In this document: one piece after another, positions 3,274-56,452 of the stretch
How positions within the stretch are numbered: position 1 is the first letter of the stretch
Layout: each line of letters starts with the position of its first letter
From: Octopus vulgaris
Taxonomy: Eukaryota
Direction: 5' to 3'
Assembly (NCBI GenBank): GCA_951406725.2
Contig: OX597826.1
Coordinates: forward strand, 30,008,001 to 30,072,000
DNA length: 64,000 bases
Notes under the pieces: generated by a model
The model's database searches: none
What the model was told of the DNA's origin: nothing
What the model saw: only the letters and a program-made list of their open reading frames with translations
Made by a program: the position numbers and the translations under genes

Positions 3274-4040
3274 GCCACTTCCGTACCGACATGTAGTTTT
3301 GTAGTTTCTTTTTATGTCTACATAAAAACCATGAAAGAATTTATTAAAGACAGTCAACAACAATAGAACTAGCTTTAGTTTTTTTTTCGTCTTTTAATAT
3401 TATCCTAACTGGAATCTAATTCTTGCCGCTGGAAGAGAAGACATTCTTTGTTTCATGCGTTTTCCATGTTATTTTTACGTGAGATTCTTAAATATAAAGA
3501 AAACCATCACGGATTTGAGATTTCTATACGAATGTCTGGAGGTGTTAATAAACGAAGAACTATCTTCGAGTGTTCCTTTGTTATTTTCTTTTTTTGTTTT
3601 TGAATATTTTTGGGTTGTAAATTGTGTTCTATATATTATTCCATAAAAGAAGATAGGGAATGGTGGGAGACAGGGAGAAAGTGAGGCTGGGTGACAGGCG
3701 AACATGTGGCTAAATTTCACGTGAGATTCCTAATTTTATCTTCCTTGAATTACATCCTTGTAAAAATACAAAAAAATATACAGAACAAGGTCCGGATTTT
3801 TGAAAGCAAATGGGAAATGCCGTCAGCAACTGTGGCGGGAATACTATGGTTCTCTGTGCCACGAGTTCAAATTTGGTAATAATTTGTTTTACTTGTTTCC
3901 TTAAGCATCAAAATTATATATATACCCAAATGAAAATGATATTTAATTTACTTAAAATAATTTGTTTGGAAACACGGCCATTCTTTTTATATACTAATAA
4001 ATTTCAACTTCTGGTAAATTGTCTGGACTATTTGTGACAT

Positions 4041-4475
4041 TGCTGTGGGGTTAAGAGGCTCGCTTTGCAACCAAGTTGTTTGGAGTTCAATCCCATAGCA
4101 CCTCACCTTGGACAAGCGTCTTCTATCATAGTCCTCGGCCGACCAAAACTTTTTATGTGAATTTGGTAGACGGAAATTGCGTGAGAGCCCGTCACACACA
4201 CACACACACACACACACAGAGAAAAAGAAAGAGAGGAAGAGAGAGGGGGAGAGAAGAAAGATAAGGAGTTAAAGAAACAGAGAAAAAGGGAGACAGCCGG
4301 TATTAGTTTGTTCACGACCACGTAGTGTAGCGGTTCGGCGAACGAAACCGATAGAACGAAAACCTGATTTTGAAAATATTAAAAGCACTGGAGTTGATTG
4401 TTTTGACGAAACTCTTCAAGTCGGTGCCCCAGCATGGCCACTGTCCAACGACTGAAAGAAGTAAAGAGAAAAGTC
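4041..4475 (+). mobile_element. tRNA-derived SINE family A, full-length degenerate copy (head, internal microsatellite, 3' tail)
   Basis: Head matches 39430 and 43918 (gctgtg..ttaag...ccttggacaagcgtcttctatcatagtcctcggccgacc...tttggtagacggaaa). Internal (CA)n/(GA) stretch. Tail gcggttcggc...gataga...ccagcatggcc...gactgaaa. Confidence 0.8.
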
Positions 4476-4519
4476 AAAAGATTTCACATATATATACGAT
4501 ATATATATATATATATACG

Positions 4520-4655
4520 ATAGGCTTCTTTCAGTTTCCGTCTACCACATCCACTCACAAGGCTTTGCTCGACCCGAGGCTACAGAAGAAGACACTTGGT
4601 CATTGCGGTACGCAGTGGGACTGAACGCAGAACCATGTGATTGGGAAGTAAACTC
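4520..4655 (-). mobile_element. SINE family A head, inverted relative to the 4041 copy
   Basis: ggcttctttcagtttccgtctaccacatccactcacaaggctttgctcgacccgaggctacagaagaagacactt is the reverse complement of the family A head. Confidence 0.8.
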
Positions 4656-4659
4656 CCAA

Positions 4660-4865
4660 ATGGCAGAACCGTTAGCACGCCGGACAAAATGCTTAGCAGT
4701 GTTTCGCCCCATCTCTACGATCTGAGTTCAAATTCTGCTAAAGTCAGCTACACTTTTTATCCTTTCAGGGTCGATAAAATAAGTACCAGCCTAGTATTGA
4801 CGATGATATAATCGATTTCCACTTTTTCAAGAACCGATGTCCCTGTGCCAAAAGTTGAAACCAAT
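4660..4865 (+). mobile_element. SINE family B (tRNA-like head plus Nin/Deu-like central domain)
   Basis: tggcagaaccgttagcacgccggacaaaatgcttagc...tgagttcaaattc...tcctttcagggtcgataaaataagtaccag; same family as 21722. Confidence 0.8.
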
Positions 4866-4869
4866 ATAA

Positions 4870-5040
<171 letters not shown>

Positions 5041-5200
5041 CGAGGGGGTACTGAAAAGTCTAGCTATGGGTGAAAGAAAATACAGTAAGATCAGTTAAAT
5101 ACGATTTTATTCAATACATTCTACTTTCAGAATCACACATATTGCAGCGGTCCTTCAGTTTTTGTAAGCCTTGTAAAAGAACTTTTCACTACCCGCCTTG
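5041..5200. mobile_element. 160-bp mariner-derived MITE
   Basis: TA|cgagggggtactgaaaagt ... acttttcactacccgccttg|TA: imperfect terminal inverted repeats with TA flanks. The interior resembles a mariner transposase 3' end on the - strand. Confidence 0.65.
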
Positions 5201-5867
5201 TATATATCATAAATTTGATACATATATTTTATATATAACACATTATTGTATATACGGTACAGTAGTATATATGATATAAACTAGATAATAATATATATCA
5301 TTATTATATATAGAAGAATTTCATTATAATATTATTATCATTACAATAATTACATATGAGGAAAAATAAGACGTATGAAGCACCACGTGATATGCTTGCG
5401 TTCCGAAATAAGAGCGGTGCAAGTAAACAGGCTTTAACTAATTATGAAAAGCAGGTCGAGGAAAGTTGGTTTACTCTTTATCGATTTTGACACGACGATA
5501 CCGCAAATGTCTTTGGAATGAAATATACTAGCAGAACGATATCGATTTTTCATATGTTATTACCATACTTATAAGTCCGTGTCTTTATTTGCTAACAAAA
5601 TTCTTGAAGTAAAATGTACATGGAGATTAGTACAGAGAATATATATTTATATATATATATAAAAAAAAACAATATATAACATAAAATATAATATATAACG
5701 AGCAGCTGTTTTTTTTTTCTTTTTGATATGATGTGGATAGAGGAAGAAATTTGTTTAAGAAATTTGTATGATTAAATTGTCTGACTCTCATATTTTTAGA
5801 TGAAGCTATTTAAATGTTTTATTTGTCAAATAACATGTACATACATACATATATCTATGTATCTATG

Positions 5868-9967: not shown

Positions 9968-10573
9968 CTTAATGTAGGATAAATTTTTTTTCGAAAAAAT
10001 CCTTTTCCCAAAAAAATCTTATCAATGGCCAGCATATTAAAAAATACCTTTAAAGGTTAAATTTATAAACAATTCATAAATAAGGGCAAACGAAAAAATT
10101 TCTAATGCCAAATATGCCGAAAAATTGGACATATTGTCCATTAACCATTAATTTTTTCACACTTCGCACGCTAATCGAAAAAAGGTCGACAGAAATTTCT
10201 AAAAAATTCCATTATTACCATATCGAACCGATTTCAGGTTTAGCTTATAACAGCCCTCCCTTCGTCAGTGATACATGTGGCAAAAGAAATAAATGAGATA
10301 CTTACTCATACCCATGGAAGAAGCAAAACACTAAGTCATGAGCACAATCATTTATTTCTTTTGCCACATGTATCACTGACGAAGGGAGGGCTGTCATAAG
10401 CTAACCCTGAAATCGGTCCCATATGGTAATAATGGATTTTTTTAGAAATTTCTGTCGACCTTTTTTCGATTAGCGTGCGAATTGTGAAAAAATTAATGGT
10501 TAATGGACAATATGTCCAATTTTTCGGCATATTTGGCATTAGAAATTTTTTCGTTTGCCCTTATTTATGAATT
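9965..10573 (-). mobile_element. PLE-type pseudo-LTR fragment with a 226-bp inverted duplication and two hammerhead motifs
   Basis: Arms 10071-10296 and 10348-10573 are near-perfect reverse complements with a 51-bp spacer. The left side extends unpaired to (TA)n, and both ends abut (TA)n. Confidence 0.85.
10370..10425 (+). ncRNA. Minimal type I hammerhead ribozyme motif (mirror copy at 10219-10274, -)
   Basis: gtatca-CTGACGA-AGGG-agggctgtcataagctaa-CCCT-GAAA-tcgg-TC. In the mirror copy the stem I partner gatatg follows. Confidence 0.7.
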
Positions 10574-10653
10574 ATATATATATGTATATATAAATATGTA
10601 GACATATCTATATCTATCTATCTCACTATATATATATATACATATATATTTGT

Positions 10654-26016: not shown

Positions 26017-27350
26017 ACATTACAACGGACTTTCAGTTTTCGTCTACAAAATCTACATTCAAAGCTTTCATCGGCCCGAGGCTATGGTAGCAGACGGTTG
26101 CCCAAGGTGCTTCGCAGTGGGACTGAACCTGGAACCATGTAGTTGAGAAGTAAACGTCTTAACATACAAATCTACCTCTTGTATATTCTTTATTCAACAT
26201 TTATAATCGGGAAATTTATACACGATACTTTATAATATATAGTGGCTCCCCCAAATTTCAGAATATTTTTCATTCATTACGGTTTAATTATAATTCATAT
26301 TTAAGAAGTCGCATAAGTTTCTTAAAACGATTTAACATATTCAGTTTAGGGAACATAAACAGGCTGGTACAACGATGAGGAAAAATACTCAAAATTAATC
26401 TTTGACTAATATTCTTTTAATTGTTTAGATAAATATGGGAGATAACTTACGACATGTTTAGGCTTTATTTAACCTCATCAATGAAACCAAAACTTCGTGG
26501 CATTTAGAGAAGTAGTGAAGACCAAATCATTAAACAAACGTACCAGAATATACATCTGTTGGCATTCAACCGAGTCTCTTCATGACGTCGATTATATTGC
26601 GTCTTCTAATCCCCTCATGATCAAGAATGAAGCCACCTCTGAAATTTTCTTTCCTGCACACGATTCTTCCTGTAACATTTATTTGCAGCTCTTTAATCTC
26701 ACCGGTCTATGAGAGTCGACGAAGGCCGGAGACACGGCTCTTTCCTCCAGACTATGCTAATTAATAAATAAAAAAAGATGATTAACAATATCTAACCTAA
26801 ACAAATTATATCTGATTATCACGAAACATTACTATTTTCAGAAATGCTCATTATTTTCACACATTTCTACGATTTCGTTAATTTATAATTATACTTAAAA
26901 ATCAATTCTTTGGAGATTCATGACTTTTCGCTTGCAAAAGCAAAGAAAAAAATTGTAAGCTAACTGATTTCTTATATATTATTAACATCTCTGGGTATGT
27001 TATATATGGATATATGTTCGTAAGTAAGAGTTTTATTACGTATGTATCTATGTACATATGTATGCATGTGTTTGTAAGTACGTATGTATACATACATGCA
27101 TGTATGTGTGTATATATATATGTATGTGTGTATACATATATAAACATATGTATGTATGTATACACATGTGAGCAACTATTAGTTTCATTCCTCTTAGCGA
27201 GTTGTATACTTTCAGAGACATGAAACTAATAGCTGCAGGAATTTGAATCCCATGTATATTAAATGAAATTTTATTTCTCGCTAGGTGGAGTACTTTCTGT
27301 TGATCCCACATATAACAGAACAGTACACTATATGTATATATATACACGTA

Positions 27351-27550
27351 GCACGGATTTTTGTCAGTGAACAGGTTGCGGTCTTATAGCGACGAAAATA
27401 TTTTGACAAATTAAACTTAAATGTTGAAGTGAATCGAACGGATTTTGTGTGTTTCTTAAATGGCTTATAAACACCTTCCACGCTGCAATTGTTTTCGTTC
27501 CAGCACACGATCTCAGATCAAATCACTTGCTATGCAAGTACATCTCCGTA
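27351..27550 (+). mobile_element. Short HHR-like element (G3:C8 core) in (TA)n
   Basis: tttgtca-GTGAACA-G-GTTGC-ggtcttata-GCGAC-GAAA-atat-TT-tgacaaa. Homologous to 35239-35381. Confidence 0.7.
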
Positions 27551-27592
<42 letters not shown>

Positions 27593-27619: not shown

Positions 27620-27815
27620 AGTGTGTTTGTCCCTCACCATCGCTTGACAACCGATGTTGGTGTGTTTACATACCCGTAACCTAGCAGTTCGGCAAATGAG
27701 ACCGATAGAAAAGTACTAGGCTTACAAAGAGTAAATCCTGGGGTCGATTTGCTTGACTAAAAGTGATGCTCCAGCATGGCTGCAGTCAAATGACTAAAAC
27801 AAATAAAAGAATAAA
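27620..27815 (+). mobile_element. SINE family A 3' tail
   Basis: ccatcgcttgacaaccgatgttggtgtgtttac...gagaccgataga...gggtcgatttgc...ccagcatggctgcagtcaaatgact. Also at 34845-35040 (-), 39905-40080 and 24015-24140. Confidence 0.8.
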
Positions 27816-34522: not shown

Positions 34523-35043
34523 TTTTATTTATATATATGTATATGTAGATATATAAAGATAAGAGTAAATAATTTCTATAAAGGCTTTTAAAAAAAACCC
34601 AATTATTTACTGGTAGGATTCGGTATGTAAATATAGCCGATTACCGGCAGGAACTTCTGTAAAGTTCAGTATATATATTGTATATAAGTAAAAGGGACAG
34701 GCAAAACAGGTTGCTTGACCGCATACCGAAAAAATAAAAATAGCAGTCAAGAATGCTTATATCTATCAAAGTTGGACTCCGGGCATGTCTTATATATGTA
34801 GATATATATATATACATATACATATACGTATACATATATATATATTCTTTTGCTTGTTTCAGTTATATGGCTGTGGCCATGCTGGGGCACCGCCTTTAGT
34901 CGAGCAAATCGACCCCAGGACTTATTCTTTGTAAGCCTAGTACTTATTCTATTGGCCTCTTTTGCCGAACCGCTAAGTTACGGGGACGTAAGCACACCAG
35001 CATCGTTTGTCAAGCGATGTTGGGGGAGGGGGAAAACACAAAC

Positions 35044-35092
<49 letters not shown>

Positions 35093-35110
35093 TATACATA
35101 CATATATATC

Positions 35111-35381
35111 GACAAGTGACCTGATCTGAGCTCGTGTGCTGGAACTAAAACAATTGCAGCGTGGAAGGTATTTACAGTCCATTTAAGAAACACGCAAAAA
35201 CCGTTAGATTCACTTCAACATTTAAATTAAATTTGTCAGCACGGAATTTTGTCAGTGAACAGGTCACGGTCTCAAAGCGACCAAAATATTTTGGCAAATT
35301 CAATTTAAATGTTGAAGTTAATCTAACGCTTTTTGTATGTTTCTTAACTGGCTTATAAACACCTTCCACACTGCAATTGTT
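35111..35381. mobile_element. Foldback copy of the G3:C8 HHR-like element
   Basis: A - strand arm (35111-35238) is joined head-to-head to a + copy starting gcacgga at 35239. Segments 35149-35238 and 35292-35381 are reverse complements. Confidence 0.8.
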
Positions 35382-35946
35382 ATATATCGACAGTAAATCA
35401 TAAATCCGAAAGAGAAACACACTATGTTATAGAGCAGTAGATTAATTAGATAAAACCATCATGACCGGTCTATGGGGTAACCCAGGGTTTCACGTCCATA
35501 AGGTTCTATATCTATATAAGTGTTGATATGTATGTGTATATATATATATATGAATGATACGTATATTAATACATACTGGCTGGACTTGTGAAAAATCCAC
35601 GGAAAACAAAAAAAATCTAAGCATCTATAAACAGTTTCTTTCACTTTTTCTTACTCCCTTTCTCTTTTACGTCCACTCTGAAACATAAAAAAAAAATGAA
35701 CAACGTCACCACTTACAGTCTCTTTCATTCTCTCTCACTCTCTTACTTTCTCTCTTACTCTCTCTCTCTTTCTCTCTCACACTCTCTCACTCTCCCTCTC
35801 TTTCTTTCTTCCTCTCTCTCTTCCTCTCTCTCTCGCTTTGAAACTTCACAGAAGTGTGACGCACACAATAGGTACGTACAAAAACAAAAAGTTAGCGTAC
35901 AAATATTATTGATAAATATACATATATGTACACACACACACATGTA

Positions 35947-56214: not shown

Positions 56215-56452
56215 AGAGTTCTATATTTAAGAGATGAGGAATAATGCACATTATTTATATTATCTACATTATTTACATTCGATGGATATTTGATCTCATC
56301 TTGTTTGTTGTTAACACAACGTTTCGGCTGATATACCCTCCAGCCTTCTTCAGGTGTCTTGGGGAAACTTCGAACCTGGGTTCTCATTTCTAAGTTCTTA
56401 ACAAACAAAATGAGGACAAATATCCGTCGAATGTAAATAATATAAATAATGC
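56215..56452 (-). mobile_element. HHR-bearing foldback element
   Basis: Main copy on - (56397 to 56215). The inverted arm ttaacaaacaaaatgaggacaaatatccgtcgaatgtaaataat (56398-56452, +) repeats the sequence just 3' of the HHR. Confidence 0.8.
56313..56358 (-). ncRNA. Canonical minimal type I hammerhead ribozyme
   Basis: GACAC-CTGAAGA-A-GGCTG-gagggtatat-CAGCC-GAAACG-TT-GTGTT. Intact core, 5-bp stems I and II, palindromic AACGTT stem III. Confidence 0.88.

Follow-up and report, generated by a model that had tools for sequence, protein, structure and literature searches.

Insertions of Penelope-like elements (PLEs) show a standard anatomy that consists of an inverted 5'-truncated copy, a tail and a target duplication (PMC8557442, PMC3846280; here and below, papers are cited for the parts of their text that were accessible). 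In Adineta Pen2/Pen2a (PMC3846280; scheme in PMC8557442), a head-to-head 5'-truncated inverted copy with an optional tail at one end is accompanied by a duplication of ~10 bp, a junction that carries microhomology or palindromes, a TATA/Inr in the repeat and (TA)n targets, and we found a closely similar combination in a repeat family of Octopus vulgaris. Unlike Pen2/Pen2a, the octopus copies are mostly a ~207-nt piece running from a putative promoter to the tail, in thousands, and the octopus tail measures ~57 nt instead of 30-40.

A purified PLE protein was reported to nick and extend both strands and to begin copying at either of two internal sites, by which the tail is defined; insertion was normal with ribozyme mutants, and RNA-seq revealed no ends at the cut (PMC11167929). 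The octopus family resembles the element PAc (Poseidon of Anolis, PMC11167929) in its two tail-defining internal starts of reverse transcription (RT), in the apparent priming of both strands, in its AT-rich target and in a hammerhead that lies upstream of the RT starts and usually seems to be uncut in the template. It differs in that the G3:C8 pair is natural in octopus and engineered in PAc, in the Neptune-like Cys motif found in the linker of one long copy (L319), and in being known from sequence alone. Metazoan PLE hammerheads (PMC4209133) are, like the octopus one, of type I, located in the terminal repeat and endowed with a palindromic stem III region suited to dimers. The cores described there are C3-G8 and U3-A8, unlike the octopus G3:C8; the minimal forms, with their U3-A8 variant, are weak in vitro, and the accessible text states that in vivo evidence is absent. 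Hammerheads go unmentioned in the accessible part of PMC13282606. In R2, an HDV-like ribozyme releases the 5' end (PMC6765202), which is the model behind the idea of self-cleavage considered below. Our literature search, with subscription papers outside its coverage, found no published count of breakpoints at a PLE cut site.

The head-to-head insertion and its parent family

We analysed a stretch of 64,000 nucleotides of contig OX597826.1 (the window), in which repeat finders were dominated by microsatellites. Family positions are counted from the g of gcacgga at window position 27351, with the predicted cut between positions 53 and 54. Alignment confirmed the layout proposed by the initial annotation. 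Read on the minus strand from 35238, the sequence is TGACAAATT; over 126 bases it aligns to the 27351 copy from 27404, the first base after the predicted cut; a plus copy with the same gcacgga start as the 27351 copy abuts it at 35239, and tgacaaa at 27404 and tggcaaa at 35292 are both present. The family letters 5' of gcacgga are AGATGCA (ending in ATGCA in most of 30 loci), so that the CA at the junction can be assigned to either arm; the minus arm starts at the predicted cut or 1-2 bases past it (54, 55 or 56). This junction (locus L194) was scored as b=54, a=-1, with a microhomology of 2. The 12-bp direct repeat that flanks both arms has 2 occurrences within the whole window, and this shared duplication indicates one insertion event (Table 1). 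The plus arm stops at the inner 3' end; the longer, tail-side copy is the minus arm.

Table 1. Positions of the features discussed (window coordinates except for the stutter loci)
Feature	Position	Strand	Basis or remark
Left target-site duplication, 12 bp	35103..35114	+	identical 12-mer at 35381
Right target-site duplication, 12 bp	35381..35392	+	partner of 12-mer at 35103
5'-truncated tail-side arm, family positions 54-179	35113..35238	-	89.7% to 27404-27529
Second arm, family positions 1-143, inner (tail-less) 3' end	35239..35381	+	88.8% to 27351-27493
2-nt microhomology CA common to both arms at the head-to-head junction	35237..35238	.	family upstream letters
Near full-length independent short copy, family positions 0-201, in (TA)n tract	27350..27551	+	
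Predicted minimal type I hammerhead, G3:C8 core, cut between 27403 and 27404	27360..27410	+	descriptor scan, fold
Decayed hammerhead of the plus arm	35248..35298	+	sequence, alignment; missed by intact-core scan
Stutter locus	L341 (C29)		
Stutter locus	C7:24901926		
Stutter locus	C5:93172958		

Another abundant short repeat, which may be similar to a cephalopod SINE, adjoins both elements in opposite orientations (34870-35030 and 27630-27810).

The genome searched comprises 2.8 Gb in 227 contigs, in which a 27-base piece of the repeat is matched exactly at least 4,236 times. For the independent short copy, the other 39 of the best 40 of 2,061 candidates all matched at 97-99%; this DNA search gave only the best full-length copies and was excluded from the breakpoint counts. 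A blind sample of 89 loci was instead chosen by the 27-base piece, irrespective of the 5' end, and yielded 141 segments. Copies on both strands within 450 bases were observed at 49 of the 89 loci (a few of them, e.g., L102 and L116, non-adjacent), including inverted 5'-truncated copies beside a 5' end. The 3' ends of the segments fell at 196-201 in 87/141 and at 137-146 in 44/141, consistent with an optional 3' tail from two priming sites, the tail being above the usual 30-40 bp. The window insertion has its 12-bp target-site duplication, and targets in the family are AT-rich, with (TA)n as the most frequent 3' flank.

Judged by its sequence, the repeat is the ~207-nt terminal piece of an endonuclease-bearing PLE. 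Longer copies (L319 and L320) continue upstream of this end for a shared 1.6-1.7 kb, which leads to a 530-aa open frame. In L320, this frame (3679-5271) is uninterrupted, 5'-truncated and contains RT-like motifs, including YVDD, plus a GIY-YIG domain that matches PF01541 (24.9 bits versus a cut-off of 22.6, E 2.5e-5); the Pfam RT domain gave no match in it at E 0.01. The GIY-YIG frame thus lies upstream of the terminal repeat in the longer copies and is absent from the window copies. The 3' untranslated region of L320 is ~1.1 kb long and rich in (ACAT)n, and L319 has a long inverted arm with an end near 143. The linker between RT and endonuclease reads C-x3-C-x2-C in L319, its first Cys being altered in L320; the Neptune clade is marked by CX2-5CxxC in this linker. 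Beyond position 201 we found no sequence common to the loci compared, and therefore no complete element was seen among them.

The 5' end of the family and the predicted hammerhead

The initial annotation had proposed gcacgga as a second defined end. A defined end does exist, but it lies 4-10 bases upstream: starts at gcacgga were seen in 1 of the 141 segments and starts at -9 to -3, mostly at -6, in 61. In long copies, TATATATG is found 30 bases 5' of A(-6). The base before A(-6) in 37 short arms was G in 18, the genomic C in 13 and another base in 6, and a non-genomic G accordingly occupied 18 of the 24 non-templated cases (p 3e-5). An extra G at the end of a cDNA is a signature of a copied cap. 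The 5' end 6 nt upstream of gcacgga is thus likely to be a capped transcription start with a TATA/Inr, the cap being copied as G. Both window copies fall within the scatter of starts just downstream of -6.

In the 40 bases upstream of the short element (L317-L321, L323), we also observed a branch-point-like motif and an acceptor-like motif ending at -5, which overlap the likely TATA/Inr start. A splice acceptor as the cause of the 5' peak was ranked below the promoter, as no upstream exon is common to the short copies and they have the extra G; read-through transcripts may contain an intron. Contigs from 4 of 21 sequencing runs showed neither ends nor a splice join, a result that bears on neither expression nor cleavage.

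An end set by the ribozyme, as in R2, was not what we observed, since the peak lies at -9 to -3 and full-length copies start ~60 bases before the cut. Moreover, across 95 blind loci, 118 segments started at or before 53, 2 at 54 and 30 later; 118 of the 120 segments that reach the cut thus run through it. The two that stop at 54 are one internal deletion and one stem I overlap. Templates ending at the cut amount to at most about 6% (95% bound from 2/120), and uncut RNA is the normal template of the family.

The hammerhead predicted in the independent copy has a G3:C8 type I core at 27367-27403, a stem I of 7 bp and a stem II of 5-6 bp according to the descriptor scan, together with a UUU triplet. 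Stems I and II, GAAA, the UH site and the palindromic stem III region were all found. When 27360-27410 was folded, stems I and II were present in the MFE structure (-12.4 kcal/mol), and the palindrome dimer had -6.2. PLE hammerhead variants reportedly cleave as dimers. The canonical C3:G8 core of the minimal type I hammerhead is not that of the family: across 100 aligned segments, the swapped pair was present as G3 in 96 and C8 in 93. Core letters are kept at 88-100%, and subfamily differences lie outside the core, one CpG site excepted. In the plus arm, stem I is at 35248-35254 and 35292-35298, the core at 35255-35261 and the palindrome at 35283-35292, with G12 changed to C at 35282 and the predicted cut between 35291 and 35292. 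A scan of the window with Rfam at gathering score gave 0 hits. Three overlapping symmetries enclose the cut, namely, the stem I complement (10-16/54-60), a palindrome (45-54) and a near-palindrome (52-60).

In a large older subfamily, the 3' strand of stem I has gained 2 bases, inserted two to four bases past the cut. Elsewhere in the window, 10058-10586 holds a second head-to-head repeat, with 239-bp arms that are 96% complementary and a 51-base spacer; the descriptor scan placed a canonical CUGACGA type I hammerhead within it (plus strand, 10376-10423). This repeat probably belongs to a further Penelope-like family, with the join lying upstream of the ribozyme. The same scan found a third minimal hammerhead core on the minus strand at 56318-56353 (CUGAAGA, with a 2-base palindromic loop).

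Breakpoints around the predicted cut

A pattern for inversion junctions near the cut gave 133 matches, of which 100 were listed and fetched and 99 kept after one duplicate was dropped; the rows removed from our lists were L059 (same place as L058) and L186 (a duplicate of L185). Among the 99 listed junctions, apparent arm starts numbered 17 at 54, 16 at 56, 12 at 45 and 0-6 at other positions. The peak expected at the cut if arms ended there was thus present, but 56 and 45 had comparable peaks, and a microhomology model reproduced the one at 54. Microhomology with stem I had been named beforehand as one finding that would speak against self-cleavage, and for inversions the data largely agree with it: among the matches listed, 8 of the 17 junctions at 54 were 7-nt stem I microhomologies, and 11 of the 12 at 45 had a 5-base overlap. 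With overlaps of at most 2 bases in the range 52-59, position 54 had 9 of 43 of the listed junctions (p 0.08) and 56 had 11; of the listed junctions with inserted bases, 54 had 2 of 20. A null of uniform stops weighted 1.4-1.6 per overlapping base, the weight being fitted on the same data, expects 10.3-15.3 at 54, where 15 were observed. The unweighted null expects 5, and the peak is then significant (p 3e-4).

A control window at 77-84 gave 77 matches (rows 31-77 read by eye; three of four near-identical C27 rows dropped), and here too overlap produced peaks, at 79 and 83. The density of junctions at 52-59 was ~2x that at 77-84 in every overlap class, and 46-51 was sparse; overlap-free junctions made up 27 of the 99 listed (~36 scaled) in 52-59 compared to 17 in 77-84. 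At an anchor efficiency of 73/51, this density ratio drops to ~1.5-fold. The exact junction type of the window insertion occurred 3 times among the 100 listed, compared to once at each of three matched sites. Among loci with truncation of both arms (91 rows, in which many loci appear twice, read by eye), the fold lies at the near-palindrome 52-60 in 11, and 1 (L338) has both arms exactly at the cut. The three symmetries can raise the density of junctions around the cut without catalysis.

A plain 5' end beside (TA)n lacks a partner arm, so that overlap with another arm is impossible. A whole-genome pattern found 10 such ends in the cut class compared to 3 and 0 at two control sites with the same C|A context. 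Eleven loci were fetched for the cut class, 10 being independent truncations (1 ambiguous, L332, with which and without which the results were computed) and 1 a whole copy (L325), which was dropped. The difference gave p 0.003, or 0.018 with the worse anchor ratio and 0.007-0.03 without the ambiguous locus; when only the higher control was used p was 0.10, and relative to the background of listed ends it was 0.003-0.12. Of 28 direct (TA)n ends in a list read by eye, 6 belonged to the cut class (p 0.009, or 0.03 if one mutated copy is left out), and a similar excess was seen at position 60, the base of stem I (4 versus 1 expected, p 0.02). Over a background of ~0.3% of ends per base, the excess of plain ends corresponds by rough estimate to roughly 1% of templates, and it may reflect cleavage or a structure-linked stop.

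A pattern for ends exactly at 54, which is blind to (TA)n flanks, gave 44 matches, among which we counted by eye 14 stem I overlaps and ~8 non-breakpoints. The control pattern for ends at 56 serves as a rough check only, as it was swamped by the subfamily with the 2-base insertion (207 matches, 100 listed); true ends read by eye among those listed were ~13 at 56, compared to 8-11 at 54 in the same stretch. Three loci (Table 1) carry 11-nt tandem stutters (positions 54-64) that start exactly at the cut, with up to four repeats. These are like repeated re-priming at the end of a template; stutters were also seen at other positions (lists by eye).

Origin of the window insertion

We consider it probable that the window holds one insertion of two 5'-truncated head-to-head Penelope-like end copies, in which RT stopped by chance at the cut and the ends were joined at a 2-base overlap. 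A TATA/Inr promoter in the terminal repeat would yield capped RNA starting 6 bases 5' of gcacgga, and the endonuclease of the element would make two nicks in an AT-rich target, one per strand and 12 bases from each other. Each of them would prime one cDNA at either internal start site (~143 or ~200). The two cDNA ends would then meet and be joined where a few bases are shared or by fold-back, and the symmetries around the cut would draw junctions there without catalysis. The position of the window junction would thus result from a chance stop and a 2-base overlap rather than from ribozyme cutting. The initial annotation had taken the inverted arm for the cDNA of a self-cleaved RNA; an origin of both arms as cDNA copies of a hammerhead-bearing retroelement RNA fits the anatomy of the family, but the self-cleavage part is weakened by the passage of 118/120 segments through the cut.

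According to the main alternative, which we regard as unlikely, self-cleavage affects a minority of transcripts, which probably pair as dimers through the palindrome and are perhaps helped by the protein of the element, and RT runs off the 5'-OH end at 54 in ~1 in 100 templates, giving the window arm. The (TA)n-flanked plain ends and the direct (TA)n ends of the cut class point in this direction, as do the rise in junctions between 46-51, where they are few, and 52-59, where they are many, the locus with both arms at 54 (L338), the stutters starting at 54 in L341 and the conservation of the core, with subfamily differences kept outside it except for the CpG site. On the same side, an engineered C3G/G8C exchange partly restored cleavage of a PLE ribozyme that is protein assisted (accessible part of PMC11167929). 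Weighing against this alternative are the bound of about 6% on templates that stop at the cut, the like excess at 60, the equality of 56 and 54 among inversions, the comparison with two control sites only in a (TA)n test that was the third of several looks, the UUU triplet, which is a poor one for hammerhead cleavage, and the weak activity in vitro of minimal PLE hammerheads (accessible part of PMC4209133). Even if the excess is real, a third to half of the ends at the cut are background, and a single window copy therefore cannot be assigned.

Self-priming of one RNA, by fold-back of the cDNA or through a self-primed antisense template, with the junction trimmed later and its position reflecting how a DNA hairpin was processed or a subsequent deletion that spanned the tip of the hairpin, has been proposed for PLEs (accessible part of PMC3846280) and would suit the palindromes at many junctions and the cut within the near-palindrome, but is quite improbable here: the plus arm contains positions 1-53, which are missing from the minus arm, so that it is not a copy of the minus arm unless 53 bases were lost one-sidedly later, and priming at both nicks is what the duplication and the difference between the two 3' ends fit.

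The chance stop with a 2-base overlap leaves the window locus as an ordinary Penelope-like inverted insertion, with in vivo cleavage by the predicted ribozyme weakly hinted at by the family as a whole. This also bears on the proposal that the arm is a genomic fossil of in vivo cleavage, which is unlikely to hold for this arm and keeps a weak foothold in the excess of plain ends across the family. That a little of the family RNA is cut in the germ line by a naturally occurring G3:C8 hammerhead, with about 1/100 copies, perhaps the window arm among them, arising by run-off, is a tentative and rather unlikely proposition.

The single window insertion decides nothing about in vivo cleavage; it is the family that gives a number, with at most about 6%, and likely ~1% or none, of templates cut when copied. 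This low share supports uncut RNA as the normal PLE template. Should the small excess persist in a count of all copies, genomic DNA by itself would provide evidence that a PLE ribozyme with a swapped core cuts in vivo, and the run-off copies would then be a record in the genome from which in vivo cleavage events of a Penelope ribozyme can be counted.
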